Shown: positions 43,852 to 60,098, numbered from the stretch's first letter. The stretch: 64,000 nucleotides of DNA from Nitrospirota bacterium (GCA_963737155.1 CAVTRN010000002.1:384001-448000), one strand, 5' to 3'. The notes: generated from the sequence alone by a model not told the origin. A program made the numbers and translations.

Positions 43852-44538
43852 ATGAGCGTGCGTTGTTTGATCATAGAGGACGAAGCGGATACTGCTCGCT
43901 TTGTCTGCAATGGCCTCAGGGAATCGGGCTACACCGTAACGTGGTGCAGGAAGAGCGCAACGGGACTCGATATTGCCACCAGTGAACAATGGGACGTCAT
44001 AATTCTTGACCGAATGTTGCCAGGAAATACAGATGGACTCTCGATTGTCAAAACACTGAGGGAACTCGGGAAATCGACCCCGGTTCTGATTGTAAGCGCC
44101 CTGGCAAGTCTGGACGAACGTGTGCGCGGGCTGCGGGAGGGTGGCGATGACTATCTCACCAAACCCTTTGCCTTTTCCGAGTTGCTCGCACGGGTAGAGG
44201 CCCTGACTCGCCGATCCAAGCTGTCGGAGGATGTTGGGGAGTTGCGGATAGCCGATCTGAAGCTTGATCTGCGTGCGCGCAGGGTCGAACGCGCGGGAAA
44301 AGCGATTCTCCTGCAGCCCCGGGAATTTCGTTTGCTCGAATACCTGGTTAGGCACCAGAACCAAATGGTCACGCGCACGATGCTGCTGGAGTCTGTATGG
44401 GACTATCACTTCGACCCCCAGACAAATGTGATTGATGTCCAGATAAGTCGTCTGCGGAGCAAGATTGACAAGGGATTCTCGCCGCCGCTTCTCCATACGG
44501 TGCGTGGTGCCGGCTATATGGTGAGCGCCCATGACTAA
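43852..44538 (+). CDS. OmpR-family response regulator (CusR/CzcR-like)
   Basis: ILDRMLP, GGDDYLTKPF, winged helix TNVIDVQISRLR..TVRGAGY. Confidence 0.93.
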   Translation: MSVRCLIIEDEADTARFVCNGLRESGYTVTWCRKSATGLDIATSEQWDVIILDRMLPGNTDGLSIVKTLRELGKSTPVLIVSALASLDERVRGLREGGDDYLTKPFAFSELLARVEALTRRSKLSEDVGELRIADLKLDLRARRVERAGKAILLQPREFRLLEYLVRHQNQMVTRTMLLESVWDYHFDPQTNVIDVQISRLRSKIDKGFSPPLLHTVRGAGYMVSAHD

Positions 44539-45892
44539 GCTCTGGAGATCAGTCGCATTTCGCCTGGCTCTCTTTTGCGGCATGCTCGTCATCGGTTCAA
44601 CTGCTGTTTTTTCGGTTATTTTTTATTTCGGGACCATCAGAAAACTGGACCAGGAGGTCGACCAAAAAATAGTTACCATCTCAGAACGGCTTGCAAACAA
44701 TTTTGAAGATAAGGGGTTTGAGGCTCTGCAGAGGGAAATACAAGCTCTCCTGACCGATAAGTTCGATGTCGATACAGAGATCTATTTTCTCGGTGGGCCC
44801 GATGGACAGAAGGTCGTAGGCAATTTGTCGGGCTGGAAAGAGATTACGGCACCGTTCGACCATCCGATCAATCGGGATGTCATTCGAGACGGATTCCCTT
44901 CATCGGCCCGCCTGGTGTTGCACAAATTGCCGAATGGCGCCGTCCTCGTAGTCGGTCGCGACATGAAGGACCTGAACGGTATCGCGAAGCTGATATGGCG
45001 CACCATTGGTATCGGCGGCGTCATTGCCCTGGTGCTCGCTATTGGCGGCACAATCCTCTTTCGTTATCTGCTGGAACGCCGTGTCAGTGCGATCCGCCAG
45101 ACTGTCGGGGAAGTCGAGGCAGGAAATCTGGCCAAACGAATACCTGTTTCCGGCGTCGAGGACGAATTTGCCCGCCTGAGCGACGACATGAATCAAATGC
45201 TCGACAGGATCGAGCATTTGATGGATGGTGTTAGGCACGTTTCCAACACGATTGCGCACAACGTGAGAACTCCTCTCAGTCAAATCCGCGGACATCTCGA
45301 TGAGTCACTTCGTGCAGGTGCCAATGCGTTACGGCTAACCGAGGCGGCTGAATTCTCTATAGCGCAGGTCGATGATCTGATCATTGTTCTCGATAAGCTT
45401 CTGCAGATTGCTGAATCTGAATCCGGTACGCGGCGCCAGCCTTTCAAACCCGTGGTGTTGCGCGAAGTGGTCACCACTGTCGTCGAACTCTATGATGCCA
45501 TTGCAGAGGCCCAAGGCATCGTTCTGACCACGAACATCGAGGGTGACCCGAAGACATTCGGCGACAAGGACCTCCTGGCGAGCGCGCTTGCCAACCTGCT
45601 CGATAATGCGCTCAAATACGGGGGACGTTCTGTGACCGTCTGTGTGCGCGAGACACCGGAGGCGGAAACCGTTTCTCTGGCGGTTCAGGACAATGGGCCT
45701 GGGATTCCGTCTGAGGAGCGGCCCAGGGTGATCCAGCGCTTCTACCGTCTTGATCAGAGAGTACCCGGCACGGGCCTCGGTCTCTCGATCGTGGCCTCCA
45801 TTGCTCATCTTCATGAAGCAGCGCTCCATCTGGACGACGCTGGTCCGGGACTTCTAGCCCGCATAGTCCTGCCGCTCTGTGTCTCTATCTGA
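44531..45892 (+). CDS. HAMP sensor histidine kinase
   Basis: Two TM, HAMP, IAHNVRTPL, NLLDNALKY, GTGLGL. Confidence 0.93.
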   Translation: MTKLWRSVAFRLALFCGMLVIGSTAVFSVIFYFGTIRKLDQEVDQKIVTISERLANNFEDKGFEALQREIQALLTDKFDVDTEIYFLGGPDGQKVVGNLSGWKEITAPFDHPINRDVIRDGFPSSARLVLHKLPNGAVLVVGRDMKDLNGIAKLIWRTIGIGGVIALVLAIGGTILFRYLLERRVSAIRQTVGEVEAGNLAKRIPVSGVEDEFARLSDDMNQMLDRIEHLMDGVRHVSNTIAHNVRTPLSQIRGHLDESLRAGANALRLTEAAEFSIAQVDDLIIVLDKLLQIAESESGTRRQPFKPVVLREVVTTVVELYDAIAEAQGIVLTTNIEGDPKTFGDKDLLASALANLLDNALKYGGRSVTVCVRETPEAETVSLAVQDNGPGIPSEERPRVIQRFYRLDQRVPGTGLGLSIVASIAHLHEAALHLDDAGPGLLARIVLPLCVSI

Positions 45893-46285
45893 ATTTACAA
45901 GCGCACCTATTCTGTCCAGTCCGTGGCTCTCCTCCAGCAGCCGTTCAGTCGATCCTCAAACCTTTCCAAATGGTAACCTAATGGAAATAATCCCGTAATA
46001 ATCGGATGGTATTATAATATCAGGTATTTTTGACACATTAGAACCGCAAAATAATGGCAATTTCACGAGATCAAGTGAAATTAAATCCGCGCCTCCTGAC
46101 ATCACGATGTCAGGTAGCCCGATTTTCTTAACCGGCCGGTATAATTGCATTGGCCCGAATGCCTTTGTGCCCGGTTCCTTCGCACGGGAAACCGTTGGAC
46201 TGATATTTGAGAAAGAAAAGTTATGGGTAGGTGAAGAATTATTTTCAAACTGGGAAATTAGTTAGGTCTATAGCGAGGTCTATCC

Positions 46286-47323
46286 ATGCGATTTAAGAGA
46301 CGTAATCTATTGGGCGTGGTTGCAGTTGCATTACTCGTCTTCTTTGCCGGCGCATTTTTCGTAAAAAATTCTGATATTCATCTGAAATCAGGGTTTAGCC
46401 CCGAACAGGCGAATGCCGCACAAGGACAGACGCCATCTGCTCCGTCATCGAGCAAGGCCCCCGATGATTCTCTCGCTCCACAAAGTGTAACACTGGATGA
46501 GACACAGCTTAAATCCATCAAGGTCGACCCGGTTGGAAAGCATCTCTTCGCGATTGAGCGGGAAGCGGTCGGCAGCATTGATTTCGACGAAGACCTTTCG
46601 GTTGTCCAGGCTGAATCAGCTTTAATCGGCGCTGCGGCGGCCTTCGAAGTGACCAGCAAAGAACTTGCGCGCGCCAAGGCCCTTTATGCGACCAACGTTG
46701 GCGTGTCGCAAAAGGAGTTGGATCAGGCTGTTTCCGACCAGCAAACCGCAGAGGGCGCCCTCAAAGCCGCACGCGATGCTGTCCGCGTCCTCGGCAAGAC
46801 AGAGGCCGAAATAGATCACATGATCGCCTCGGGCAGGATTGAGCCGACACTGGTTAGCCGGGTAGCCGATGCCTATGTCACCGAAAGCGACACGCCGCTC
46901 GTTCACTTGGGACAGCCGGTTACTGTCAAGGTCATGGCCTATCCTGACCGCGTGTTTGAAGGCAAAGTCACGAAGATATATGCGGTCGTTGATCCGGATA
47001 CCCATAGAACCAAGATCCGCGCCACAGTTGCTGATCGCAGGAATGAGCTGCGTCCTGGAATGCTGGCCAGCGTCATGATTCGCATTCAAAAACCCGTGGA
47101 AGCCATCGCGATACCGGTCAACGGCGCGGTCCGCGAAGGCGATGGTACGATGACGGTTTGGGTCACCATCGACCGCCATCGCTTCATACAAAGACCAGTC
47201 GAGCTTGGTCTGCAAAAAGACGGCTGGTATCAGATAGTCAAAGGTCTGCAGCCAGGCGAACTGGTTGTTACTGAAGGCGGCATATTCCTCAGCAACATGC
47301 TGGAAGCCCCGCCAACGGATTAG
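46286..47323 (+). CDS. RND efflux periplasmic adaptor (CzcB/CusB-like), apparently lacking the lipoyl domain
   Basis: N-terminal TM, alpha-hairpin, beta-barrel (GKVTKI..VDPDT..LRPGM), membrane-proximal domain (GLQPGELVVTEG). Confidence 0.88.
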   Translation: MRFKRRNLLGVVAVALLVFFAGAFFVKNSDIHLKSGFSPEQANAAQGQTPSAPSSSKAPDDSLAPQSVTLDETQLKSIKVDPVGKHLFAIEREAVGSIDFDEDLSVVQAESALIGAAAAFEVTSKELARAKALYATNVGVSQKELDQAVSDQQTAEGALKAARDAVRVLGKTEAEIDHMIASGRIEPTLVSRVADAYVTESDTPLVHLGQPVTVKVMAYPDRVFEGKVTKIYAVVDPDTHRTKIRATVADRRNELRPGMLASVMIRIQKPVEAIAIPVNGAVREGDGTMTVWVTIDRHRFIQRPVELGLQKDGWYQIVKGLQPGELVVTEGGIFLSNMLEAPPTD

Positions 47324-47325
47324 CC

Positions 47326-50300
47326 ATGTTTAAGTCTCTCATAGCATTTTGTCTGAGCCGCCGAGCGATTATTGTGGTTGCCCTGCTACTATTTGCAGGC
47401 GCAGCGTTTATCGCGTTTCAAAAGCTCAACATCGAGGCCTATCCAAATCCAGCACCGGTTATCCTGGAGATAACCGCGCAGGCGCCAGGTCTGTCGGCCG
47501 AGGAGATGGAGCGGTACTACACGCGCCCAATCGAAATTGGCCTCTACACGACTCCCGGCATCGCTGTCATCCGATCCACCTCGTTTTACGGCCTGTCTTT
47601 TGTCCGGGTCGTTTTTAAATATGGGGTAGAGTATCACTTCGCTTACAGCCAGGCGGCCATCTCGCTGCAACAAAATGTCAGTCTTCCCGGCAATCTGGTG
47701 CCCACTATTCAGCAGAACAGCGGAACCGGAGAAATCTATCGCTACCAGGTGGTGGGACCGAAGCATTTCGGAATAACCAACCTCCGGACTGTTCAGGATT
47801 GGATCGTAGCGCGCCGCCTGTTAACCATTCCCGGCATAGTTGCGGTCAACAGTTGGGGCGGACCGACAAAGCAATTCGAGGTAGAAGCTGATCCGCACAA
47901 ATTAGAAGCTTACAACGTAACGGTACCCCAAATCCTGGCTGCGCTGGGCAACGCCAACATCAACGTGGGCGGGCGGGAAATCCGCATTGGCCAGCAATCG
48001 ATCAATATTCGTGGCGTCGGCCTGATTGACGATGGCGGCAATGATGATTTGACCCAGGGCTTCAAAGTTGATGACATTGAAAACGTTGTCCTGACCCAAT
48101 CGAATGGAGTTCCTGTACAGATAAAGGATGTTGCAAAGGTGCATGTGGGATATAGGCCGAGGCTCGGAATCTGGGGCCATGATAGAGAGGACGATGGTGT
48201 AGCGGCGATTGTGGTCATGAGCCGCGTTGACCGCGCTCATGACATGCTGCCAAAGGTCAAAGCCGAGATTGACACCATGAATCAAGACGGGAGTCTGCCG
48301 CCGGGAGTCAAGCTCGTTCCCTTTTATGATCGAGGATCGCTGATCAACGTCACCACCCGCACCGTTTTGCACAACCTCATCTTTGGATGCCTGCTTGTCA
48401 TCCTCATTCAATGGATTTTTCTCGGCAATTTCCGCAGCGCGATCATCGTCGGGTTGAATATCCCGTTTGCCCTTTTTTTCGCAATCATTCTCCTCGTGAT
48501 TCAGGGCGAAAGCGCGAACCTGCTTTCGGTCGGCGCCGTTGATTTCGGCATCATCGTGGATTCAGCGGTTATACTTGTTGAAAATATTTTCCGCACCTCC
48601 CAGGGGCGCCCGGAAGAAAAAGAGGGGATGCTCCGTAATCTTGCCGAGGGCTTTTGGGGGCCGGACCCGACGAGGATCCCAATGCATGCCACTCCGTCCC
48701 GCGGATGGACGGATCGTTTGCGGCTTATTCTGATTAGCGCAATACAAGTGGACAAGGCGGTTTTTTTCTCAACCTTAATAACCGTGGCGGCTTTCGTGCC
48801 GCTTTTCACGATGCAGGGAGTTGAAGGCGCGATATTCGGCCCAATGGCGCGCACATACGGATACGCACTGGCGGGCGCCTTGATCGCAACATTCACCGTC
48901 ACGCCTGTCCTTGCGTCCCTGCTGCTCCCCGAGCATGTAAAGGGAACCGAGACAATTATCGTCCGCGCACTGCGCCGCCTTTATGATCCGGCACTGCGTT
49001 TCGCGCTGGCCCACCGCGCGATCATGGTGATGATCGGAATTGCTTTTATCGCCTTGGCCGGATTTCTGATACCGCGTCTCGGAAGCGAATTCCTGCCTCA
49101 CCTCGAAGAAGGCAATTTTTGGATACGCGCTTCCATGCCGATGACGCTTTCGCTGGAAGAAGGCGAGGCGGCGACGAGGAAAATGCGGACGATTCTCCTG
49201 AAATATCCAGAGGTCATTACCGTAACGTCCCAGCACGGCCGGCCGGATGACGGCAGCGACGCGGCGCCATTCTCCAACGTCGAACTGTTCGCGGTGCTCA
49301 AGCCGCCCGACCAATGGCGCACAGGCATGAATAAGGAAAAACTGACCGAACAGATTAACGCCGAGCTTGAGCGTGAGCTGCCCGGGGTCTTCTTCAACTT
49401 CTCGCAATATATCCAGGATAACATCGAGGAGGCCATTTCGGGCGTTAAAGCAGTTAATTCGGTCAAGATCGTTGGCCCCAACCTTGAAACATTGACCAGA
49501 CTGGCGGAGCAGGTGAGGGACGAGATGAGCAAGGTGCGCGGCATTGCCGACCTCGGAATCTTTCCAGTCCTAGGTCAGCCGAATCTGAATATCAAGGTGG
49601 ATCGCGCCAAAGCCGCGAGGTATGGTCTCAATACTGGCGACATCAACTCTGTCATCCAAGCAGCGCTTGGCGGTACGGTAGCGACATCGGTATTGGAGGG
49701 GGACCGCGAGTTCGACCTGGTTGTCCGCTATCCGCCCGGATACCGTGACAGCATAGAAAAAATCCGCAACGTGAAGGTGGCCTATCAAACAGGGAGCGGC
49801 ACAAACGCCTACCTTCCTTTGCGTGAACTGGCAACGATCAGCTTGGACACGGGAGCGGCCTGGATTTATCACGAAAGCATGCAGCGCTTCATCCCGGTCA
49901 AGTTCAGCGTGCGCGGTCGTGACCTCGGAGGCACCGTTGCCGAGGCGCAGGAGCGTATCGCGAAGAATTTAAAGCTTCCGAGCGGCTACCGGCTGATCTG
50001 GGCCGGTGAGTTCGGAGATCTGCAGAGCGCTAAAAAGCGCCTGGAAGTGATCGTGCCTATCAGCCTCGTGCTCATCCTGGGGTTGCTCTATGCCACGTTC
50101 AATTCGCTTCGTGACAGTCTGATGGCGCTCGCAGGAATCCCTTTCGCGGTTGCTGGCGGCATATTGGCACTCTATATCTCCGGTCTCAATTTCAGCATTT
50201 CCGCTGCCGTCGGTTTTGTCTCACTCTTTGGCGTATCTGTCATGAACGGCATCCTGATAATTACCTATTACAACCAAGGAAGGCTTCACGGCGGCAGGCC

Positions 50301-50550
50301 CCTAGAAGCGATGATCCACGCTGCCTCAACCCGTATGCGGCCGTTACTCATGACGAGTTTCTCCGCCTGCCTCGGCCTACTTCCCGCAGCGATTTCGACC
50401 GGGATCGGAAGCCAGGTGCAGCGGCCGCTTGCTACCGTGATCGTTGGCGGCATGTTCATTGGTCCAATCATTTTGCTGGTAGTTGTGCCGCCGCTCCAGA
50501 TGATGTTCTTGGAAGAGAAGAATGAAACGCAAAAAACAACTATCGACTAA
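47326..50550 (+). CDS. CusA/CzcA family heavy-metal RND efflux transporter
   Basis: APGLSAEEME, GAVDFGIIVDSAVILVENI, LGSEFLPHLEEG, RMRPLLMT, GSQVQRPLATV. Confidence 0.95.
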   Translation: MFKSLIAFCLSRRAIIVVALLLFAGAAFIAFQKLNIEAYPNPAPVILEITAQAPGLSAEEMERYYTRPIEIGLYTTPGIAVIRSTSFYGLSFVRVVFKYGVEYHFAYSQAAISLQQNVSLPGNLVPTIQQNSGTGEIYRYQVVGPKHFGITNLRTVQDWIVARRLLTIPGIVAVNSWGGPTKQFEVEADPHKLEAYNVTVPQILAALGNANINVGGREIRIGQQSINIRGVGLIDDGGNDDLTQGFKVDDIENVVLTQSNGVPVQIKDVAKVHVGYRPRLGIWGHDREDDGVAAIVVMSRVDRAHDMLPKVKAEIDTMNQDGSLPPGVKLVPFYDRGSLINVTTRTVLHNLIFGCLLVILIQWIFLGNFRSAIIVGLNIPFALFFAIILLVIQGESANLLSVGAVDFGIIVDSAVILVENIFRTSQGRPEEKEGMLRNLAEGFWGPDPTRIPMHATPSRGWTDRLRLILISAIQVDKAVFFSTLITVAAFVPLFTMQGVEGAIFGPMARTYGYALAGALIATFTVTPVLASLLLPEHVKGTETIIVRALRRLYDPALRFALAHRAIMVMIGIAFIALAGFLIPRLGSEFLPHLEEGNFWIRASMPMTLSLEEGEAATRKMRTILLKYPEVITVTSQHGRPDDGSDAAPFSNVELFAVLKPPDQWRTGMNKEKLTEQINAELERELPGVFFNFSQYIQDNIEEAISGVKAVNSVKIVGPNLETLTRLAEQVRDEMSKVRGIADLGIFPVLGQPNLNIKVDRAKAARYGLNTGDINSVIQAALGGTVATSVLEGDREFDLVVRYPPGYRDSIEKIRNVKVAYQTGSGTNAYLPLRELATISLDTGAAWIYHESMQRFIPVKFSVRGRDLGGTVAEAQERIAKNLKLPSGYRLIWAGEFGDLQSAKKRLEVIVPISLVLILGLLYATFNSLRDSLMALAGIPFAVAGGILALYISGLNFSISAAVGFVSLFGVSVMNGILIITYYNQGRLHGGRPLEAMIHAASTRMRPLLMTSFSACLGLLPAAISTGIGSQVQRPLATVIVGGMFIGPIILLVVVPPLQMMFLEEKNETQKTTID

Positions 50551-50560
50551 AGGAAGCACT

Positions 50561-50833
50561 ATGAAAGCATTGTTTTGTTAGATTTTAGTTTTAGCGATGG
50601 CTATCGGGCTATCGGCTACTCATGCGGCCTTTGCCAAACCAAATAACGTCGATAAGGCCGTTGCAACCCGAAAAACGGGTAAACGCTGGACGCAACTTCG
50701 GGAAAAATCGGGCGCAGGAATCAACAGGCTACATGTTGAAACACAAAAAAACCGCAAATCCGGACGCAACGACACGAGAACCAAAAAAAGCAGTTCATGC
50801 ATCAACGGAACAACGATTCATCGTAATCATTAG
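50561..50833 (+). pseudogene. Small basic exported protein with in-frame TAG at codon 7
   Basis: RBS AAGGAAG, MKALFC*ILVLAMAIGLSATHAAFA-KPNN.. signal-peptide-like, K/R-rich tail. Confidence 0.45.
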
Positions 50834-50853
50834 CGCTGTATTAAGGAAAGGCC

Positions 50854-52362
50854 ATGTTATCAAAACATTTCCACTGCATCGCTGCGACGTTGTCAATTGT
50901 TGGCCTCGTCTCAGGCTGCGCCGTGGGGCCGAACTTCCACCGTCCGGCACCGCCCGCGATTAACGGCTATACGGCTGAGCCGCTGACTGCGACGACTTCT
51001 ACCACCAACATAGCCGGCGGCGAAGAACAACGCTTTGTCATGGGGATGGATATTCCCAAACAGTGGTGGTCATTGTTCAAGTCGCCGCCGCTCAATGCAC
51101 TGGTCGAAAAATCGCTCAAGACCAACCCAACGATCGAAGCAGCGAAAGCAGCCTTGCGCCAGGCTCGGGAAAACGTTGCCGCCCAGATGGGCTTTTACTA
51201 TCCCACCGTCCAGGCCGGCTATTCAGCCAGCCGGACTAAGGACTCGAGCACCCTTTCTCCGGTGCTGGCTTCGGGTGCGGAGCCCTACACTCTCCATACT
51301 GCTCAGGTGAATGTGGGCTTTATGCCTGACGTGTTCGGCAGCAACCGGCGGCAGGTGGAATCCTTAAGGGCAGAAGCCAATTTTCAGCGCTTCCAGCTTG
51401 AGGCGACCTATCTCACGCTGACGTCGAACGTGGTAGCTGCGGCCATCCAGGAAGCTTCATTGCGCGCTCAGCTTTCCTCAACGCGAAGCATTATCAGGAT
51501 CGAGACTGAGATGCTCGACCAACTAAACCGACAGTTGGCAGTCGGCTATGCTGCCGGGCTGGACGTGGCTGCGCAGGAAGCGGCCTTTGCCCAGGTACAG
51601 CAAACCTTGCCGCCACTCCAGAAGCAACTGGCACAAACTCGCGATTTGCTTGTGGCCCTTGCCGGCCGTTTCCCAAACAAGGAGCTGGACGAGAAGTTCG
51701 AGATCGAGGCTCTCAGTCTTCCCGAGGAGCTGCCGGTCAGCCTCCCCTCCAAACTGGTGGAGCAGCGCCCAGACGTGCGCGCCGCCGAGGAACTATTGCA
51801 TTCCGCCAGCGCCCAGGTCGGCGTCGCCGTCGCCGCTATGCTGCCGAATATTACCCTGAGCGCAGATTTGGGCAGTAGCGCTACCGCGATCAGTCGGCTA
51901 TTTACGTCCGGAACCGGTTTCTGGAGCTTGGCTGGCAATCTCACGCAGCCCGTCTTCGAAGGGGGCACCTTGCTGCACAGGAAACGGGCTGCTGAAGCAG
52001 GTCTGGATCAGGCTGAGGCTGAGTATCGTAACACGGTTATCGCCGCATTCCAAAACGTGGCAGACACGCTGCATGCGATCCAATCCGATGCAGATGCTCT
52101 GAAAGCAGCGGCGGCGTTCCAACATGCCGCCCAACGAAGCCTCGATCTTGCGCAGAAGCAATTCGAAGTCGGCTACATTAATTATTTATCGTTGCTCTCT
52201 GCCGAGCAGGCGTATCATCAGGCAGTTATTAATCTCGTACAGGCTAAGGCCAACCGTTTTGCCGACACCGCAGCATTATTTATGGCGCTTGGCGGCGGCT
52301 GGTGGAACGGCCCGGACGACACTTCTGCGCCAACGACCTCAGAGGCCTCCTGGCAACGTTAA
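50854..52362 (+). CDS. RND outer membrane lipoprotein (NodT/OprM family)
   Basis: Lipobox VSGC-AVGPNF, QWWSLF, QRPDVRAAE, ALGGGW. Confidence 0.93.
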   Translation: MLSKHFHCIAATLSIVGLVSGCAVGPNFHRPAPPAINGYTAEPLTATTSTTNIAGGEEQRFVMGMDIPKQWWSLFKSPPLNALVEKSLKTNPTIEAAKAALRQARENVAAQMGFYYPTVQAGYSASRTKDSSTLSPVLASGAEPYTLHTAQVNVGFMPDVFGSNRRQVESLRAEANFQRFQLEATYLTLTSNVVAAAIQEASLRAQLSSTRSIIRIETEMLDQLNRQLAVGYAAGLDVAAQEAAFAQVQQTLPPLQKQLAQTRDLLVALAGRFPNKELDEKFEIEALSLPEELPVSLPSKLVEQRPDVRAAEELLHSASAQVGVAVAAMLPNITLSADLGSSATAISRLFTSGTGFWSLAGNLTQPVFEGGTLLHRKRAAEAGLDQAEAEYRNTVIAAFQNVADTLHAIQSDADALKAAAAFQHAAQRSLDLAQKQFEVGYINYLSLLSAEQAYHQAVINLVQAKANRFADTAALFMALGGGWWNGPDDTSAPTTSEASWQR

Positions 52363-52492
52363 CCTTGCCCAATTACACACTAGTGTGCGTCAATGACCTT
52401 GACTGGAATTGGAAAACAGATAAAATATATATTGAAACCTGTCGTGCGATGTCCAATTTGTTTCTGCTGTGGCTTCTTATTAAGGTGGATGG

Positions 52493-53188
52493 ATGATGGA
52501 GATAACCAATTTTGGAGCATCTCGAGAAACCAGCAGATTGTACGCATTTGCTTCCACCCTGGCGCTCATCACCATAGCCTACAATCTTGCCGAAGGGGTG
52601 GTCTCAGTTATTTTCGGACTTGAGGACGGGAGCATGGCGCTCTTCGGGTTTGGAGTGGACTCCTTCGTAGAGGTAGTTTCGGGTATTGGGATTTGGCACA
52701 TGGTGCAGAGGATCAGAAATAAGGGCAAAGAGAACCCTGATCATTTCGAGCAAACGGCTCTCAAAATCACGGGAACGGGATTCTACGTCCTGGTCATTGG
52801 ACTCTCGATTCCCGCCGCAATCGGTCTATATCGGGGGCATAGGCCTGTCACAACCTTCTGGGGCATTGTGGTTTCCGTCATCTCCATTGTCACAATGTGG
52901 CTATTGACCCATTACAAGGCAAAAGTCGGGAAACAGCTTAACTCCGAAGCTATCCTTGCCGATGCTGCATGTACGCGAGCCTGTTTACAGCTTTCTATCG
53001 TTCTGCTCATTGCCAGCGCCGGTTACGAAATCACCCATATCGGCGGGATTGACTCTGTCGGGACATTCGCGATAGCGTGGCTTTGCTACCGGGAAGGAAA
53101 GGAAGCGTTAGAAAAGGCAAAGGCCAAAAGTCTTGCGTGTACGTGCGGAGGGAATTGCCATACACAAGAGCCCCCTACCTCAGTCTGA
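52493..53188 (+). CDS. Short cation-efflux (CDF-like) membrane protein
   Basis: YNLAEG..ALFGFGVDSFVEV, LNSEAILADA, six TM, C-terminal CTCGGNCH. Confidence 0.8.
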   Translation: MMEITNFGASRETSRLYAFASTLALITIAYNLAEGVVSVIFGLEDGSMALFGFGVDSFVEVVSGIGIWHMVQRIRNKGKENPDHFEQTALKITGTGFYVLVIGLSIPAAIGLYRGHRPVTTFWGIVVSVISIVTMWLLTHYKAKVGKQLNSEAILADAACTRACLQLSIVLLIASAGYEITHIGGIDSVGTFAIAWLCYREGKEALEKAKAKSLACTCGGNCHTQEPPTSV

Positions 53189-53427: not shown

Positions 53428-53844
53428 ATGCCAATTGATATTAAAGTTCTGCATGACGGTATGGGCATACTGTACCATTGTCACGGAACAGTGACTGGCA
53501 AAGATTTCATAGAAGCCAACAAACGAATCCTCACTTTCGACGAACATTTAAAACAGGTGAGATATGGAATCGTAGATGAGACAACAACTGATGACATCCA
53601 GATGGCTGAGTCCGAAATGCTGATGATTGCTGCGCAGGATAAAAAGATAGCCAATCTCGTTCCATCGGGGGCTATTGTCGCTGTAATAGCCGACCGTAAT
53701 TTCGCTTTTGGACTTGCGCGTATCTGGGAATCATTCATTGAACAGACAGGATGGGAAACCATGATATTTAGGAATAGATGGAAGGCAGAAGGCTGGATTA
53801 AGGAAAAGGTTAAAGCGAACTGTGGAATTGATTTAATATTTTAA
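53428..53844 (+). CDS. Hypothetical protein, SpoIIAA/STAS-like
   Basis: RBS GGAGG; VAVIA...FGLARIW...IFR...AEGWI pattern. Confidence 0.7.
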   Translation: MPIDIKVLHDGMGILYHCHGTVTGKDFIEANKRILTFDEHLKQVRYGIVDETTTDDIQMAESEMLMIAAQDKKIANLVPSGAIVAVIADRNFAFGLARIWESFIEQTGWETMIFRNRWKAEGWIKEKVKANCGIDLIF

Positions 53845-54285
53845 TAATTAGCACAAAAGATGTCGAGTAGCGGTCCAGAATTGAAATTATAAAAAGTAAA
53901 AAATTCATTGAAACTTGTTGTGCGAAAGCCTTCCTGAACTTGTTTTAATTTTTAATCTTCTAAGCAGAGCATTTTCCAACCCGTAAATAATATCTCTTAC
54001 GCAGGACTCCCGCATTTCATGCGCTATCATTCGATCATCCTCATGTGGTGGGGGTGTCTTCCGGTAAAACAACCCCATGGTTGCAAATTCCATAAGCATG
54101 GTCTTTTTATAAGATTTATGATGCCCATGATGCAGAATGCCAGATAGGTAAGTAATGACTTCAGCACCGCCGTAATATTTTCTTGGTGCTATGATAATGA
54201 CAGAAATTATTTCGGTGGATAAATATAATAGTGCCTCAGTGTTATATCTATGTCTATGTTAGCTACAACAAAAGGAGGATATAAT

Positions 54286-54894
54286 ATGCCAGTAGAAGAA
54301 ATCGTAAGCGGCGCAACATCAACCAAACATATAGGTAAAGCAGGATTGACTGTTAAAGAGGGTGTCATAAGCAGCCTCAAGGGAATCAATGAGATCGAAG
54401 CAGAGATCGTCAGCCTTGTTCGGAATACCGTGTCCAACACGCTCCGAGCGACGGGCTTCGTGGGAAGCGAAACGATAATTGTTATAAAGGATGTCGTCAA
54501 GGGCGCGATTCAGGCGACGGAAGAGGTTGGCACGGGACTCATCCTGAGCACCAAGAGCGTCACGAAAGGCGTGGTCATGGGCGTAAGCGATGTTGGCGGT
54601 GATGTGCTCTCTGTTGCAGGTCCGACGATCAGAGGTGCAATTAAGGGCGCGGCTGAGGTTGGCGCAGATGTTGCCATGGTTGCACGGCGGGCCATCGATG
54701 GCGTGCTTGAAGCTACGAAAGAAATTGGCGGTAATGTCGAGGAAGTCGCAAAAGTAGCAGTTACGGGCGCCATTGATGCTGCGGCAGCGATTGGCAATAC
54801 TGCAGTTAAGGCAGTCAAGGATATGCTGGTCGGCGTCGTTGAAGGGGCAAAAGAGGTTGCAGTAAGCGTGCTTCCCAACGCAAAAGCGGCGTGA
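54286..54894 (+). CDS. Hypothetical A/G/V-rich protein with 22-aa helical repeats
   Basis: RBS AGGAGG before ATG 54286; periodic (K/R/D/T)G(A/V)(I/V/L) units. Confidence 0.8.
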   Translation: MPVEEIVSGATSTKHIGKAGLTVKEGVISSLKGINEIEAEIVSLVRNTVSNTLRATGFVGSETIIVIKDVVKGAIQATEEVGTGLILSTKSVTKGVVMGVSDVGGDVLSVAGPTIRGAIKGAAEVGADVAMVARRAIDGVLEATKEIGGNVEEVAKVAVTGAIDAAAAIGNTAVKAVKDMLVGVVEGAKEVAVSVLPNAKAA

Positions 54895-56530: not shown

Positions 56531-56803
56531 CTCCGATGCGGTAAACGTCATGCAAATTCTTAAATCGAGGATTCTCGGTTTTTCAATCATATATGGAGCG
56601 GGCTTCGTGCTCGCGCCCGTTCGCAGCAATACGGCTTGTACGAGACTGTCGAGAATTCCTTGTCGTCAAAAAAATCGTTTTATCCGGCAAAAATAGACGG
56701 GAGATCTGGCATTAACGAAGACAATTCCCGAAAGTACAATGATCCTATCAGTGATTGTAGGTCTGCTTCGGATACAAATTCCGGCAAGAAAGGCCCATTC
56801 CTT

Positions 56804-57277
56804 ATGAAAAAAATGATCTATTATTTGGTTCTCAGCATGAATATGGTGTTGGCCGTTCTAACAGCAGTGTCTTCAGCCCAAGCCGCGCTTGGTGAGCCCG
56901 CAAATTCGGTTACGGCTGATCGAAAGGCCATCTTGTCCGCACGGAGCGCTACGACGATGACCCATGCAAACTACACTGTACAGCAATTTAAGTCTGATGC
57001 AGTTACTGTGAGGGAATATATTTCCCCAGCGGGCATCGTATTCGGAATCGCCTGGAACGGTTTGATGTACCCTGACCTGACGCAGTTGCTCGGTTCCTAC
57101 GCGAATGAATACCGGGAAGCTCAGCGTCGGATGCCCCGCATGCATGGCAAAAGGACCCAGCAGGTTAAAACTGACCGCGTTGTCGTGGAGAAATGGGGGC
57201 AAATGCGAAACCTGCAGGGCCGTGCTTACGCGCCTGCTTTGATCCCTCAAGGAGTAACGATAGGTGAAATCAAATAG
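56804..57277 (+). CDS. DUF2844 domain exported protein
   Basis: Signal peptide ending AQA-ALG; TVREYISPAGIVFGIAW.G..PDL.QLLGSY; G.MR..GRAY.P.LIP.GV. Confidence 0.88.
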   Translation: MKKMIYYLVLSMNMVLAVLTAVSSAQAALGEPANSVTADRKAILSARSATTMTHANYTVQQFKSDAVTVREYISPAGIVFGIAWNGLMYPDLTQLLGSYANEYREAQRRMPRMHGKRTQQVKTDRVVVEKWGQMRNLQGRAYAPALIPQGVTIGEIK

Positions 57278-60098
57278 AGTACCGCTTCTTTTGCTGATTG
57301 TTATACTGCTTGCCGGTTGTGGGAGTTCGGGCGGAGGGTTGAGTGCGCCTGCGCAAACCCTTGTATTCATTTCGGTGACGCCGACCAATCCAAGCATTGC
57401 CCTCGGCACAACGCGGCAATTTGTAGCCACGGGAACTTTCTCCGACAATACGACGCAAAACTTGACAGGGTCAGTGACGTGGAGTTCAACTTCCGCATCA
57501 GTGGCGACGATAAGCAATACGGCCGGCTCCAATGGCCTGGCAACGTCAGTCGGGACGGGGTCAACTACCATAACAGCTGCGTCGGGCGGGATTTTGGGCA
57601 CCACAGCTTTGACCATTACGGGGGCGACGCTTGTATCCATCTCGGTGACACCGACCAATCCAAGCATTGCCCTCGGCACGACGCGGCAATATACAGCCAC
57701 GGGAACCTTCTCTGACAATACGACGCAGAACTTGACAGGGTCAGTGACGTGGAGTTCAACTTCCGCGTCAGTGGCGACGATAAGCAATACGGCCGGCTCC
57801 AATGGCCTGGCAACGTCAGTAGGGACGGGTTCAACTACCATAACAGCCGCGTCAGGCAGGATATTGGGTTCCACAACTTTGACCATTACGGGGGCTACGC
57901 TTGTATCCATTTCGGTTACACCGACCAATCCAAGCATTGCCCTCGGCACAACGCAGCAATTTACAGCCACGGGGACTTACTCCGACAATACGACGCAGAA
58001 CTTGACGGAGTCAGTGACGTGGAGTTCAACTTCCGCATCAGTGGCGACGATAAGCAATACGGCCGGCTCCAATGGCCTGGCAACGGCAGTCGGGACGGGG
58101 TCAACTACCATAACAGCTGCGTCGGGCGGGATTTTGGGCACCACAGCTTTGACCATTACGGGGGCGACGCTTGTATCCATTTCGGTTACACCGACCAATC
58201 CAAGCATTGCCCTCGGCACAACGCAGCAATTTACAGCCACGGGGACTTACTCCGACAATACGACGCAGAACTTGACGGGGTCAGTGACGTGGAGTTCAAC
58301 GTCCGCATCAGTGGCGACGATAAGCAATACGGCCGGCTCCAATGGCCTGTCAACGTCAGTCGGGACTGGTTCAACTACCATAACAGCCGCGTCAGGCGGG
58401 ATATTGGGTTCCACAACTTTAACCATTACGGGGGCGACGCTTGTATCCATTTCGGTTACACCGACCAATCCAAGCATTGCCCTCGGCACAACGCAGCAAT
58501 TTACAGCCACGGGGACTTACTCCGACAATACGACACAAAATTTGACGACATCTGTAGCCTGGAGTTCGTTGTCCACGACGGTTGCCGGCATCAGCAATGC
58601 AGCGGATTCCAACGGTAAGGCGACGTCGGTAGCAATAGGCTCAACCACGATTACGGCCATTTCCGGCAGCATATCAGGTTCTACGACATTGGCGGTTACT
58701 CCTGCAGTACTTGTATCCATTTCGGTGACACCGACCAATCCGAGTATTACCCTCGGGACGACGCAGCAATTTACAGCCACGGGAACCTTCTCCGACAATA
58801 CGACGCAAAACGTGACAGGGTCAGTGACGTGGAGTTCAACGTCGGCGTCAGTGGCGACGATAAGCAATACGGCTGGCTTCAATGGACTGGCCACTTCGGT
58901 TTCCACAGGCGCCACGACGATTACAGCTGCATCAGGAAACGTAGCAGGAGTTACCATGCTGACTGTAATCAGCGGGACAGCTCCCGTCATTAATGTGATG
59001 TCCATCACCGTGAACGGCTCACTCTGCTCGTCCAGCACTTCCGCCGGATATCTTAACAAACCCTGCGTCAGTGTTACGATCTGTACACCTGGATCCACTA
59101 CTGCCTGCCAGACTATTAACGACATTCTTCTGGATACCGGAAGCTACGGGCTGCGGATCTTTCAGCAAGTGCTGACTGTGCCTCTGCAAACGATAGCAAG
59201 CGGTACCGGTTTGCTTACCAGCTGCGTTCAGTTCGCAGATGGCTCGTCCGACTGGGGGCCGGTAGAATTGGCGGGTGTGGTCCTGGGGAATGAGCCTGCA
59301 GTTAATGTCCCAATTCAGGTCATTGATGCTACGTTCGGCACTGTCCCTTCGTCATGCGGTACCCCTGAGCTGAGCCCGGCAGATGCGGGATTTAGCGGTA
59401 TCCTCGGCGTTGGCCTCTTCGACCAGGACTGCGGGCCGGTATGCGTAAGCAGCAACGCGGTCGGAATCTATTACACATGCAGTGGGTCGGTTTGCGATCC
59501 GACTACCGTGCCGCTTTCCAATCAAGTTTCAAATCCCGTAGTGAGCCTCCCTACAGACAGCAACGGTGTGATTGTCCAGCTGCCGGCCATTCCATCAAGT
59601 GGATCACTCTCGGTCAATGGCAGCCTTGTACTCGGGATCGACACACGTACAAACAATGCGTCCAGCGGCGCTACGATGTATAGTGTTAACGATGTAAATA
59701 ACGAAGACTACGGGGAAATCTTGACTGTCTTTGATGGCGTATCCTATGGCAGCGTCATAGATAGCGGCTCAAACGGCCTGTTTTTCACCGCGTCATCTAG
59801 CCAGATTCCGCAATGCAGAAATAATCCGGACTGGTTCTGTCCCGCGTCCACGACAACCCTTTCTGCTGAGAATACGGGGTATTTGGGAACACCGAGCAAC
59901 AATGTTTCCTTCCAAATCGGCAATTTTGACAGTCTCATAAATTCGTCCAACCAGGTGTTCTTTAATATCGGCGGTCCTGTACCTCCATCCACGGATTTTT
60001 TCGACTGGGGGCTCCCGTTCTATTTCGGACAGAGCATTTATGTGGGAATTGAAGGGCAAGAATCGAAACTGGGCACTGGGCCCTATTACGCCTACTGA
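57264..60098 (+). CDS. Lipoprotein with six Ig-like (Big_2) repeats and C-terminal DUF3443 (aspartic-protease-like) domain
   Basis: Lipobox LAGC, 90-aa repeats LVSISVTPTNPSIALGTTQQFTATGT, PCVSVTIC, LLDTGS, NPV, DSNG, IDSGSN, DWGLPFY. Confidence 0.92.
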   Translation: MKSNRVPLLLLIVILLAGCGSSGGGLSAPAQTLVFISVTPTNPSIALGTTRQFVATGTFSDNTTQNLTGSVTWSSTSASVATISNTAGSNGLATSVGTGSTTITAASGGILGTTALTITGATLVSISVTPTNPSIALGTTRQYTATGTFSDNTTQNLTGSVTWSSTSASVATISNTAGSNGLATSVGTGSTTITAASGRILGSTTLTITGATLVSISVTPTNPSIALGTTQQFTATGTYSDNTTQNLTESVTWSSTSASVATISNTAGSNGLATAVGTGSTTITAASGGILGTTALTITGATLVSISVTPTNPSIALGTTQQFTATGTYSDNTTQNLTGSVTWSSTSASVATISNTAGSNGLSTSVGTGSTTITAASGGILGSTTLTITGATLVSISVTPTNPSIALGTTQQFTATGTYSDNTTQNLTTSVAWSSLSTTVAGISNAADSNGKATSVAIGSTTITAISGSISGSTTLAVTPAVLVSISVTPTNPSITLGTTQQFTATGTFSDNTTQNVTGSVTWSSTSASVATISNTAGFNGLATSVSTGATTITAASGNVAGVTMLTVISGTAPVINVMSITVNGSLCSSSTSAGYLNKPCVSVTICTPGSTTACQTINDILLDTGSYGLRIFQQVLTVPLQTIASGTGLLTSCVQFADGSSDWGPVELAGVVLGNEPAVNVPIQVIDATFGTVPSSCGTPELSPADAGFSGILGVGLFDQDCGPVCVSSNAVGIYYTCSGSVCDPTTVPLSNQVSNPVVSLPTDSNGVIVQLPAIPSSGSLSVNGSLVLGIDTRTNNASSGATMYSVNDVNNEDYGEILTVFDGVSYGSVIDSGSNGLFFTASSSQIPQCRNNPDWFCPASTTTLSAENTGYLGTPSNNVSFQIGNFDSLINSSNQVFFNIGGPVPPSTDFFDWGLPFYFGQSIYVGIEGQESKLGTGPYYAY
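57361..58980 (+). repeat. Six tandem 270-bp intragenic repeats
   Basis: Units start at 57361, 57631, 57901, 58171, 58441 and 58711; units 1-4 near identical. Confidence 0.95.

Follow-up and report, generated by a model that had tools for sequence, protein, structure and literature searches.

We identified, on the + strand of a Nitrospirota genome, a two-gene cassette in which a gene for a small exported DUF2844 protein is followed by a gene for a 944-aa lipoprotein carrying a DUF3443 head. We lean, by a modest degree, towards reading the pair as a self-contained cassette for a latent, lipid-anchored aspartic endopeptidase that is provided with a plug or pro-segment in trans, on the strength of structural models of the head and of its complex with DUF2844, of conserved catalytic motifs, and of the pairing and opposite charges of the two proteins. 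The features are collected in Table 1; the window is the whole stretch of DNA analysed, 64,000 nucleotides long.

Table 1. Features of the DUF2844/DUF3443 cassette, in window coordinates.
Feature	Position	Strand	Details
Sigma-70-like promoter match	56712..56740	+	~64 nt upstream of DUF2844 start; weak, consensus only
DUF2844 gene	56804..57277	+	157 aa; PF11005 match
Sec-type signal peptide of DUF2844	56804..56884	+	residues 1-27, ...AVSSAQA/ALGEP; read from sequence
DUF2844 loop RMHGKRTQQ	57137..57163	+	residues 112-120; predicted against head S262/N263/L266, beside D833
DUF2844 segment EKWGQMRNLQG	57188..57220	+	residues 129-139; predicted against head G52-S53-Y54 (after D624) and flap
Shine-Dalgarno AAGGAG of lipoprotein gene	57249..57254	+	within the end of the DUF2844 gene
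Lipoprotein gene	57264..60098	+	944 aa; signal peptide/lipobox, six Big_2 repeats, DUF3443 head
Lipoprotein signal peptide and lipobox L-A-G-C	57264..57320	+	Cys19 codon 57318-57320; +2 residue Gly
Stalk, six tandem Big_2 units	57360..58979	+	residues 33-572; 90 aa / 270 nt each
DUF3443 head	58986..60095	+	residues 575-944; predicted two-lobed pepsin-like fold; acidic; 12 Cys
N-lobe motif LLDTGS	59127..59144	+	D624 (codon 59133-59135) = head D50
Putative flap tip VQFADGS	59226..59246	+	head 81-87; F657 = head F83
N-lobe hydrophobic-hydrophobic-Gly in GILGVG	59397..59414	+	residues 712-717; I713-L714-G715
C-lobe motif VIDSGS	59754..59771	+	D833 (codon 59760-59762) = head D259
C-lobe motif DWGLPFY	60003..60023	+	residues 914-920; G916 invariant

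The lipoprotein frame opens on a GTG codon, 9 nt 3′ of its Shine-Dalgarno sequence, and its start overlaps the end of the DUF2844 gene by 14 nt, so arranged that both proteins appear to come from the same, translationally coupled message. The promoter match (TTAACG-17-TACAAT) scores 9/12 in a sigma-70 consensus scan; the region contains eight such sites, four of them copies within the repeats, where shuffled sequence gives 3.2 ± 1.9. The lipoprotein begins with MKSNRVPLLLLIVILLAGC, where inspection and the pattern [LVI][ASTVI][GAS]C place the lipobox LAGC at Cys19, which would tether the protein to the membrane. A Cys-Gly column at this position is at least 90% conserved in the family alignment, and the crude lipobox pattern is present in 52/80 related loci. 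Behind the anchor, the Big_2 profile (PF02368) matches six stretches (216.5 bits, E 3.1e-65), which would form a spacer between anchor and head, and repeat finding gives a period of 270 nt with 5.7 copies and 86% matches. DNA identity is 91.5-95.6% among units 1-4 and 70-75% between unit 5 and the others; the counterpart of unit 6 is unit 2 of a paralogue. Four of the six units stem from a recent amplification. Lipobox, six Ig-like repeats, DUF3443 head at the tip and gene overlap had all been proposed in a sequence-only reading of this DNA, and all were recovered here; the surface display suggested there is a matter of interpretation, not an observed feature.

The head matches the DUF3443 profile (PF11925) nearly end to end (402.9 bits, E 1.5e-120, residues 576-944 to profile positions 4-367 of 367), well past the cut-off of 25 bits. 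Its AF2 model (pLDDT 96.5, pTM 0.94) has at least 500 matches in the PDB by Foldseek at E <= 0.001 (best E 6.5e-11), and all of the best 50 of these, the ones listed, are pepsin-family enzymes. By VIA-align, 570/998 chains reach Z >= 8 against the model, with Z 24.1 for 1wkr_A (rmsd 3.1 Å, 284 aligned residues, model range 1-370) and Z 21.8 for porcine pepsin 5pep (rmsd 3.0 Å, 270 aligned). The predicted head thus shares the two-lobed fold, over its whole length, with pepsin family A1 (1wkr polyporopepsin, 2apr rhizopuspepsin, endothiapepsin, 5pep, plasmepsins, BACE1 and renin; Z 21.6-24.1, rmsd 2.9-3.5 Å, 266-284 residues aligned), and in the model each lobe contributes a conserved D-T/S-G-S loop to a single cleft. 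The pepsin-like two-lobed fold that had been suggested from the sequence is therefore borne out at the level of a predicted model, as are the many cysteines of the head: 12 were counted, and in the family alignment 10 Cys columns reach a conservation of 90% or more.

Sequence comparison places the head differently. Identity in the structural alignments to the pepsin family is 12-20%; neither phmmer nor the family profile found a pepsin among all PDB sequences, and in Pfam the window head matches DUF3443 only, and no protease family, at E <= 10. PF00026 is absent from the 25 families listed of the 31 matched by 96 relatives, the other 6 having at most one member each. Asp_protease_2 (PF13650, curated cut-off 24.3 bits) is matched at E <= 10 by 15/96 relatives, two of them above the cut-off: P0098 (29.7 bits), in which profile positions 1-87 span the N lobe with its LLDTGS-equivalent motif, and P0010 (27.0 bits). 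In P0052, the C-lobe motif falls on positions 3-23 of the same profile. The window head has no Asp_protease_2 match at E <= 10, and these sequence matches of relatives point to distant kinship of the family, not to membership of the window protein. PE-PGRS_C (PF20729) was found over the N lobe below threshold in 2/96 relatives (best 23.4 bits, cut-off 33), with no match in the window head. Since the DUF3443 head has no A1 sequence match, we regard it as a separate family with a pepsin fold; by sequence the lipoprotein lies outside MEROPS A1 and Pfam Asp, so that "pepsin-like" holds for fold and motifs only.

The upstream protein covers the DUF2844 profile (PF11005) completely (145.3 bits, E 1.2e-42, profile 1-130/130, curated cut-off 22.4 bits). 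In its mature form it has ~130 aa, is basic (pI 9.99) and contains no Cys. An alignment of 50 homologues has 32 invariant columns and a mean column identity of 60%; A27, L29 and G30 around the putative signal peptide cleavage site are invariant. Modelled alone, DUF2844 reaches moderate confidence (pLDDT 69.3), and this model has no recognisable fold, with a best Foldseek E of 0.048 and, against 48,161 chains by VIA-align, a best Z of only 5.0 (rmsd 4.1 Å, 96 aligned). Predicted together, head and DUF2844 form a complex with ipSAE 0.92 in all three runs, against 0.00 for the best of 3 controls. That mark is reached by 116/157 solved complexes and 2/215 mismatched pairs, a calibration that is only rough because own alignments were supplied, and ipSAE is the model's own confidence rather than a measurement. 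The three runs share at least 91% of their 131-141 contacts, with a partner pLDDT of at least 86.

On the head, the predicted interface comprises residues 52-54, 81-87, 257, 259, 261-264 and 332-340 (head numbering); on DUF2844, it comprises 112-120 and 129-139, which hold invariant residues of the protein (R112 and G115 in the first stretch, where R117 is at least 90% conserved; E129, W131, G132, M134, R135, L137 and G139 in the second; 50 homologues). Among the contact pairs, head 262 meets DUF2844 115, 116 and 117, and 266 meets 118; 52-54 meet 133/134, 82 meets 137 and 84/85 meet 130. D624 itself is absent from the listed contacts, its neighbours 52-54 being present. DUF2844 is thus predicted to plug the active-site cleft, its invariant loops lying against both catalytic loops and the flap. 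The charges of the two proteins are opposite: the head has a pI of 4.05, with 5 K+R and 27 D+E, and the pairing of a basic DUF2844 with an acidic head is family-wide (head pI median 4.28 in 96 relatives and 4.10 in 80 proteins from loci; mature DUF2844 pI median 9.39 in 50 homologues and 9.15 in 74 proteins from loci).

The two genes also travel together. Of 598 confirmed stretches, 80 loci were kept, 76 of them evaluable for the upstream gene; in 72/76, across several phyla, the gene immediately 5′ of the head gene and on its strand encodes DUF2844. Two loci (L023 and L029) have enough upstream DNA and no DUF2844, and keep both catalytic motifs. The junction overlaps in 39/50 measured loci, most commonly by 14 nt (16 loci) or 4 nt (14 loci). 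Among 151 genomes of the phylum, which are kin and not independent samples, 32 carry DUF3443 and 32 carry DUF2844; the two families are found together in 31 and are both missing from 118, so that they co-occur in 31/33 positive genomes. No third conserved gene was found among 145 flanking ORFs. Altogether, co-occurrence of the two families, as anticipated by the sequence-only reading, holds at the level of both genomes and loci, and the interaction that it postulated is supported by the predicted cleft contact and by the gap between complex and controls.

The DUF3443 family has 2314 representatives at 50% identity (E <= 0.001) and was seen in Nitrospirota, Desulfuromonadia/Geobacter, Myxococcota, Acidobacteriota, Bdellovibrionota and Burkholderiales. 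Record titles trace many of the related loci to peat, palsa, bog and forest-soil assemblies. With canonical pairs (Burkholderia/Paraburkholderia plasmids, Geobacter, Anaeromyxobacter, Acidobacteriota), the window cassette shares the two Pfam families, the gene order and the overlapping junction; in the plasmid records, the product is named a DUF3443 family or domain-containing protein in 7/8 and is unannotated in 1/8. Most canonical DUF3443 proteins are stalkless, whereas in the window protein the Big_2 array spans 540 residues; among the open frames of the 151-genome sample, this protein is the longest seen. In stalkless relatives the head follows immediately on the lipobox, from about residue 47; this is also the median head start of 133 full-length representatives, only 13 of which have it at residue 200 or beyond and 2 at residue 500 or beyond.

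The genome itself holds three cassettes, and an intact DUF2844 is found at the window cassette only, the other two having a broken DUF2844 next to an intact head gene. Strict one-to-one dependence is therefore unlikely, and the partner would not be needed in cis, perhaps not for every copy. From the model, DUF2844 may be an inhibitor, a pro-segment in trans, a chaperone/foldase or a substrate. Periplasmic inhibitors encoded beside secreted metalloproteases and lipase-specific foldases are precedents for a partner that serves only as a periplasmic transit guard or folding helper, binding during export and staying behind without a pH switch. Translational coupling, cleft binding in the model, and a cleavable signal peptide with no lipobox on DUF2844, so that it would meet the lipidated head in the periplasm, all suit such a role, while the loss of DUF2844 in two cassettes speaks against an indispensable per-copy foldase. 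We consider this reading unlikely, and it departs from our preferred one in the release mechanism only, which makes it a variant rather than a true alternative.

DUF2844 could instead be a substrate or precursor of an active head, an activating cofactor or a substrate-presenting adaptor, the cleft contact being productive binding. The basic, extended loop 112-120 is predicted to run along substrate-binding residues by D833, as a substrate would; the conservation of DUF2844 fits a functional product equally well, and the head genes beside broken partners show that a head can be kept without a partner in cis. Contacts spread over two loops and the flap, however, resemble a folded plug more than one threaded strand; the basic-acidic pairing seen throughout the family parallels that of pepsin and its pro-segment, and a dedicated one-to-one substrate with no other gene has no obvious use. 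We hold this second reading to be distinctly unlikely.

The two Asp motifs of the head argue for catalysis. LLDTGS, GILGVG, VIDSGS and DWGLPFY had been picked out in this order from the sequence, with conservation of the two Asp residues as a proposed check, and all are present in the right order. Across 234 DUF3443 homologues (counts over ungapped rows per column), D624 is kept in 224/225 and D833 in 227/229, a conservation that makes chance motifs untenable. The rest of LLDTGS is kept in 216/225 (T), 216/225 (G) and 220/226 (S), and that of VIDSGS in 229/229 (S/T), 228/229 (G) and 227/229 (S/T). An Asp-Thr/Ser-Gly-Ser/Thr/Ala motif in each lobe is a feature of A1, according to two sources (PMC4814920, PMC2761423). 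When the N lobe was aligned with the C lobe by hhalign, LLDTGS fell on VIDSGS (E 0.0018). In GILGVG, L is kept in 216/231 and G in 230/231; in DWGLPFY, G is kept in 223/223, P in 221/223 and F in 220/223. DWGLPFY is the likely counterpart of the second psi-loop Gly motif; it reads D-W-G, with one hydrophobic residue before the Gly and not hydrophobic-hydrophobic-Gly. The Asp-to-Gly-motif spacings of 91 and 83 residues are close to those of pepsin (~88 and 86). The model also has a hairpin as putative flap (strands E75-82 and E88-99), where F657 is the putative equivalent of pepsin Tyr75, a match made by position rather than by alignment; the residue is F in 162 and Y in 65 of 228 homologues. 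According to Rawlings and Bateman (2009, PMC2761423), no Phe75 homologue had been shown to be active, and Y75F weakens rhizopuspepsin.

A further reading makes the head a binding module with a pepsin fold and no catalysis, joined with DUF2844 in a receptor-ligand or adhesin complex. We find it quite improbable: some eukaryotic pepsin-fold proteins are silent, Big_2 stalks are typical of adhesins, and the Phe at the putative flap position, the non-canonical second Gly motif and the missing protease profile match would suit it, but both Asp residues persist in at least 99% of homologues from several phyla, a pattern not easily accounted for in a non-catalytic protein, the extreme acidity (5 basic residues only) is like that of acid proteases, and other homologues have Tyr at the flap position.

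Beyond the fold, the cassette has in common with A1 the D-T/S-G-S/T loop in each lobe, the N-lobe hydrophobic-hydrophobic-Gly, export, disulfide richness and the pairing of a very acidic enzyme with a basic blocking polypeptide, the blocking being predicted here. The head is unlike A1 in its lack of detectable sequence kinship, its ~40 extra residues, the Phe at the putative flap position and D-W-G. Secreted A1 zymogens typically carry an N-terminal pro-segment in the same chain, whereas in the lipoprotein, which has a lipid anchor and an Ig-like stalk, the Big_2 array directly precedes the head with no cis pro-segment, and the predicted blocking polypeptide comes as a protein in its own right, folded, 130 residues long and with its own gene. 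The basic pro-segment of pepsinogen fills the cleft of its acidic aspartic protease until low pH releases it; Ascaris PI-3, yeast IA3 and squash SQAPI are proteinaceous inhibitors of aspartic proteases. DUF2844 resembles all of these in concept only, being a separate, Sec-exported and conserved protein of ~130 residues whose gene is coupled upstream of the enzyme gene.

Among bacterial proteins, shewasins A and D are likewise two-lobed with two D-T/S-G motifs. They are active and pepstatin-sensitive according to Leal et al. (2016, PMC4814920), and two papers describe them as true A1 members by sequence, cytoplasmic and without signal peptides, with bacterial pepsin homologues reported from seven species only (PMC2761423, PMC4814920). 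The DUF3443 family differs from them in being exported and lipidated, in its partner gene and in its size. A further bacterial aspartic protease can be compared through PF20729, sub-threshold in two relatives and unmatched in the window head: PecA, a C-terminal domain that a PE_PGRS protein carries out through type VII secretion and that is not known to have a lipobox, an Ig-like stalk or a DUF2844-type partner. One report presents PecA (PE_PGRS35) as a surface-associated aspartic protease of mycobacteria and bacterial aspartic proteases as relatively rare (PMC6819658). Our literature search found no paper on the DUF3443/DUF2844 family, and no enzymatic, expression or localisation data for any DUF3443 member.

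In the latent-protease reading that we prefer, the head would be proteolytically active, with its optimum at acid or weakly acid pH, and DUF2844 the trans-supplied counterpart of the basic pepsinogen pro-segment. In the periplasm, at neutral pH, DUF2844 would both stabilise and block this acidic enzyme; it would leave or be cut once the enzyme has arrived where it works or the pH drops. How far the head stands from the membrane would be set by the stalk, whose length could change easily by repeat amplification, and the one intact DUF2844 probably serves a close paralogue whose partner gene has decayed. A bolder proposal, which we put forward tentatively and would not yet bet on, is that DUF3443 and DUF2844 form a "split zymogen", in which the pro-segment has become a separate, co-translated and exported protein released by acid. 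Were this so, pepsin-type proteolysis would be a widespread extracytoplasmic trait among bacteria of soil, peat and sediment rather than a rarity of the cytoplasm, and lineages would tune the reach of the enzyme by swapping and amplifying Ig-like spacers, the six-unit stalk of the window being an example.

If the preferred reading is true, thousands of exported, lipid-anchored pepsin-fold enzymes would be added to bacteria across the six lineages listed above, and two large DUF families would gain a testable function. The cassette would show in nature an aspartic protease under the control of a cleft-binding protein that has its own gene, and it bears on the evolution of the pepsin fold and of zymogen control. 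Should the enzymes be active at low pH, the family may also have a part in the turnover of protein in acidic soils, a link to habitat drawn from record titles only.

We examined the window's DUF2844/DUF3443 gene pair, two overlapping genes on the same strand. A sequence-only reading had described an exported DUF2844 protein whose gene overlaps that of a lipoprotein with six Ig-like repeats, and Pfam searches and inspection of the ORFs recovered every one of these elements. At its N-terminus the DUF2844 product has a signal sequence of typical, cleavable form (…AVSSAQA, followed by mature ALGEP), and 64 nt 5' of its gene is a weak site resembling a promoter. The GTG start of the lipoprotein gene lies 9 nt after AAGGAG, giving a 14-nt overlap with the DUF2844 stop. 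The N-terminus of its product, MKSNRVPLLLLIVILLAGC, is a lipoprotein signal with Cys19, followed by six Big_2 units (E 3.1e-65) and the DUF3443 domain (residues 576-944, E 1.5e-120), hereafter the head. NCBIfam holds no model for either protein.

Coordinates of the gene pair, its surroundings and related loci (G000, the window's own genome; L0xx, related genomic loci)
Feature	Position	Strand	Description
DUF2844 gene	window 56804-57277	+	157 residues; Pfam DUF2844 match end to end, E 1.2e-42
DUF3443 lipoprotein gene	window 57264-60098	+	944 aa; GTG start
DUF302 protein, cation-diffusion facilitator, RND/OEP efflux set	upstream of pair		flanking genes
Hybrid histidine kinase	downstream of pair	opposite to pair	flanking gene
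Response regulator, histidine kinase, RND-type efflux set, cation-diffusion facilitator	window 43852-53188	+	followed by DUF302 gene
ORF of 214 aa	window 54250-54894	+	no Pfam match
ORF of 138 aa	window 53428-53844	+	no Pfam match
Second cassette, split DUF2844	L007 7834-8326 = G000:C2, about 2815833-2816325	-	two overlapping frames
Third cassette	L008 5683-7760 and 3194-5438 = G000:C2, about 599193-603760	- and +	
L034, DUF3443 homologue	L034 3311-5134		C-lobe D-S-G-S alone found by pattern search
L036, broken and second copies	L036 193-1975 and 3077-5131		DUF2844 plus a DUF3443 that is broken into three frames, then a second, long-stalked DUF3443
L013, tandem genes	L013 3803-6267		one DUF2844, then two full DUF3443 genes in a row

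The head belongs to a large family, with 2314 relatives at E <= 0.001 and 1041 at E <= 1e-30 (phmmer, 1.84 billion cluster representatives). Modelled by AlphaFold2 with an alignment of 95 relatives, it gave a confident structure (pLDDT 96.5, pTM 0.94), for which Foldseek returned at least 500 PDB matches at E <= 0.001 (best E 6.5e-11). Among the matches listed, 50 of 50 were pepsin-family enzymes, including plasmepsins, rhizopuspepsin, penicillopepsin, endothiapepsin and BACE1. When Foldseek's top 998 chains were realigned with VIA-align, 570 reached Z >= 8; the head superposed on polyporopepsin (1wkr_A) with Z 24.1 and 3.1 A rmsd over 284 residues at 19% identity, and on porcine pepsin (5pep) with Z 21.8 and 3.0 A over 270 residues. 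Since the polyporopepsin alignment spans model residues 1-370, both lobes are covered, and the two-lobed pepsin-like fold first suggested by motif order is thus borne out in the predicted structure.

The four motifs lie exactly where they had been read, with D624 encoded at nt 59133 and D833 at nt 59760. To follow them across the family, 234 homologues (150 representatives and 84 ORFs from 80 genomic loci) were aligned to the family HMM. The first aspartate is conserved in 224 of 225 ungapped rows, followed by Thr (216), Gly (216) and Ser (220); the second is Asp in 227/229, followed by Ser/Thr (229/229), Gly (228/229) and Ser/Thr (227/229). The Gly of I-L-G is kept in 230/231 rows and that of D-W-G in 223/223. 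Judged from these alignments, the catalytic apparatus is under selection, as the proposal of an aspartic protease had presupposed for both Asp residues. The single homologue lacking the first Asp (1/225) may be the one in L034. Two features speak against an active enzyme: the window head has Phe as its putative flap residue (F in 162 and Y in 65 of 228 homologues), and the second Gly motif, D-W-G, is non-canonical.

We then asked how far kinship with known aspartic peptidases can be followed in sequence. An hhalign comparison of the N lobe with the C lobe aligned LLDTGS to VIDSGS (E 0.0018, probability 15%), faintly suggesting that the two lobes are related to one another. The likeness resembles that described for pepsin in a passage by Rawlings and Bateman (PMC2761423), in which inter-lobe similarity goes no further than the Asp motif plus another that reads hydrophobic-hydrophobic-Gly. 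Among 96 relatives, matches to aspartic peptidase profiles at E <= 10 comprised Asp_protease_2 (15), gag-asp_proteas (5) and PE-PGRS_C (2); one relative (P0098) passed the Asp_protease_2 cut-off, its N lobe aligning to profile positions 1-87, and another (P0052) placed its C-lobe motif on positions 3-23 of the same profile, a weak sequence contact between the family and known aspartic peptidase profiles. In Pfam, the window head matched DUF3443 solely, and searches of PDB sequences with the head, the 96-row family profile and P0098 gave chance-level matches only, with no pepsin; residue-level equivalence to the pepsin aspartates is therefore not derivable from sequence. The head is thus best described as pepsin-type by predicted fold and motifs, and as lying outside the MEROPS pepsin family A1 by sequence.

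We next looked at how tightly the DUF2844 gene is tied to DUF3443. One genome from each species was scanned by pattern, yielding 598 confirmed stretches, and the best 80 of these 598 were analysed, drawn from Nitrospirota, Geobacter/Oryzomonas, Anaeromyxobacter, Acidobacteriota, Vicinamibacteria, Bdellovibrionota, Burkholderiales and others. DUF2844 was present in 74/80 loci and lay directly upstream on the same strand in 72/80; one locus had it downstream (L034) and one beside a broken second copy (L036). In 4/80 the contig end was too near to judge, and 2/80 (L023 and L029) had sufficient upstream DNA and no DUF2844, both Asp motifs being retained in each. Among the 50 loci whose start was placed by a crude lipobox rule, 39 junctions overlapped, most commonly by 14 nt (16 loci, as in the window) or 4 nt (14 loci). 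Across 151 genomes of the window's phylum, DUF3443 occurred in 32 and DUF2844 in 32, with both in 31 and neither in 118, and the two genomes with one family only had weak matches (E 2.5e-7 and E 1.9e-5); since the sampled genomes are kin, these counts show linkage rather than independent events. The statement of the sequence-only reading that the two families co-occur thus stands, and extends to direct adjacency. In four genomes of one family within this phylum (G019, G075, G087 and G103), DUF2844 lies immediately 3' of DUF3443, the order inverted and the adjacency kept. A public cluster representative of 685 aa (P0004) carries DUF2844 (23-152) and DUF3443 (322-685) in a single ORF, either a natural fusion or an artefact of a frameshift or of gene calling where the two genes overlap. 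Tandem arrays of cassette genes are present in some relatives (L036, L013).

Linkage did not extend to other neighbours. A conserved third gene for secretion or regulation was rejected, as the largest homology group in an all-against-all comparison of 145 flanking ORFs had 3 members. A functional link to the metal-efflux, cation-diffusion facilitator and DUF302 genes was likewise rejected, since these are not kept beside the pair in other loci; nor is the hybrid histidine kinase. The efflux set itself comprises a membrane fusion protein, a 1074-aa pump and an OEP outer-membrane factor, and the region looks like a metal-efflux island. The two ORFs without a Pfam match lie in a low-GC stretch (0.40-0.42 vs about 0.50-0.55 around) with strong positive GC skew, and the larger product is repetitive and rich in Val, Ala, Gly, Lys and Glu.

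The two proteins are of complementary charge: mature DUF2844 has a pI of 9.99 (family medians 9.39 and 9.15), and the head a pI of 4.05 (family medians 4.28 and 4.10), with 5 Lys and Arg against 27 Asp and Glu. Alone, DUF2844 was modelled as a beta-sheet with helices at moderate confidence (pLDDT 69.3), and its fold matched nothing above background (best Foldseek E 0.048; best VIA-align Z 5.0, with 96 residues aligned at rmsd 4.1 A). When head and mature DUF2844 were predicted together, each chain with its own alignment, ipSAE was 0.92 in 3/3 runs, compared with 0.00 for the best of three controls. The mark used for this complex-prediction score is reached by 116/157 solved complexes and 2/215 mismatched pairs, a rough guide here because custom alignments were used. 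The runs shared at least 91% of contacts with partner pLDDT of at least 86, and the prediction supports the interaction proposed between the two proteins. On the head, the predicted interface comprises residues 52-54 (just past D624-T625), the hairpin tip 81-87, 257, 259 (D833), 261-264 and 332-340; on DUF2844 it comprises loops 112-120 and 129-139, which carry the invariant R112, G115, E129, W131, G132, M134, R135, L137 and G139. One compact DUF2844 surface thus contacts both catalytic loops and the flap in the model, indirect evidence that both Asp loops line one cleft, and DUF2844 is predicted to sit at the substrate position. No solved complex containing a protein like DUF2844 is known to us, and a prediction that simply reproduces a known structure therefore seems unlikely; pepsinogen-like geometry may still have guided the model.

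The genome itself holds three DUF3443 genes, all open and each with both motifs; an intact DUF2844 is found only in the window's cassette. In the second cassette, DUF2844 is split by a perfect 22-bp tandem duplication in the conserved GIVFGIAWNG region; the gene may be a pseudogene or be switched reversibly by slippage, or the assembly may be at fault. The downstream 590-aa DUF3443 gene is intact with two Big_2 units. In the third, an intact 585-aa DUF3443 gene, whose head is identical to the window's at 327/370 residues (88%), follows the decayed remains of a DUF2844 gene, which are spread over three frames, interrupted by stops and missing the 5' end. Just downstream is a pair of ORFs, an IS607-like serine recombinase and a TnpB-like one, and upstream is a gene for an MFS transporter. 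A sister genome likewise carries a stop-bearing DUF2844 remnant. Interface residues identical to the window head number 41/51 in the third head and 26/51 in the second, which makes the third head a plausible client of the window DUF2844 and the second a less clear one. One intact DUF2844 for three heads argues against a strict cis requirement, and the pattern would fit a trans-acting, diffusible periplasmic partner.

The stalk consists of six 270-nt units. Units 1-4 share 91.5-95.6% DNA identity, their counterpart being unit 1 of a two-unit paralogue (about 85%), and unit 6 corresponds to that paralogue's unit 2 (87.8%); unit 5, at 70-75% to the other five, is older. Recent tandem amplification has therefore enlarged the array. 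Long stalks are rare: the median start of the head among 133 full-length representatives is residue 47, only 24 having an extension of at least 110 residues before it and only 2 one of at least 500. The spacers of 25 scanned stalked relatives comprised Big_2, HYDIN/ASH-type Ig, CARDB, Flg_new_2, fn3, CarboxypepD_reg, PKD and SLH, and the head was C-terminal in every case; placing the working domain distally on a spacer is thus a design that recurs. At +2 the lipoprotein has Gly, not Asp, and under the E. coli +2 rule non-Asp residues favour the outer membrane. Judged by adhesin structures, six Ig-like domains would reach about 20 nm or more, which is long for the periplasm. By these analogies, the head is weakly suggested to be exposed on the cell surface rather than periplasmic.

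Known bacterial aspartic proteases are of other kinds. Shewasins, the bacterial pepsin homologues in print, are presented in passages of PMC2761423 and PMC4814920 as true A1 members that lack signal peptides and are cytoplasmic, with homologues of this type reported from seven species, and PecA of mycobacteria is presented in a passage of PMC6819658 as a surface-located aspartic protease that relies on type VII secretion for its export. Our literature search, which covered papers apart from their supplements, where a mention is possible, found none naming DUF3443 or DUF2844; under PF11925, PF11005, IPR021847 and IPR021267 it returned only Plasmodium gene identifiers, judged by titles. It likewise found no paper on a bacterial pepsin-like or aspartic lipoprotein with a domain of unknown function. 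Annotated plasmid records label the protein only as 'DUF3443 family/domain-containing protein'. Public structure-based superfamily assignments ('acid proteases') may already include some DUF3443 members.

Computation gives the fold, the conservation of the motifs, the linkage of the genes, the complementary charges and the predicted interface; anything said here of catalysis, dependence on pH, the direction in which regulation runs, location and substrates is inferred. In our proposal the head would be an aspartic endopeptidase mounted on a stalk and held by a lipid anchor, produced along with the basic, exported DUF2844. By filling the cleft at neutral pH, DUF2844 would hold the enzyme inactive and perhaps also stabilise it, until the complex is parted by acidification, by cleavage of DUF2844 or by transport. 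Catalytic activity of the head is the part we hold with most assurance and consider highly probable, and the binding of DUF2844 in the cleft is likely on the predicted complex. That DUF2844 is a latency factor we favour slightly over a role as substrate or cofactor, and a pH-driven release is a tentative suggestion. Altogether, the pair would be not a categorically new enzyme but a protease of pepsin fold whose control partner and way of anchoring are new.
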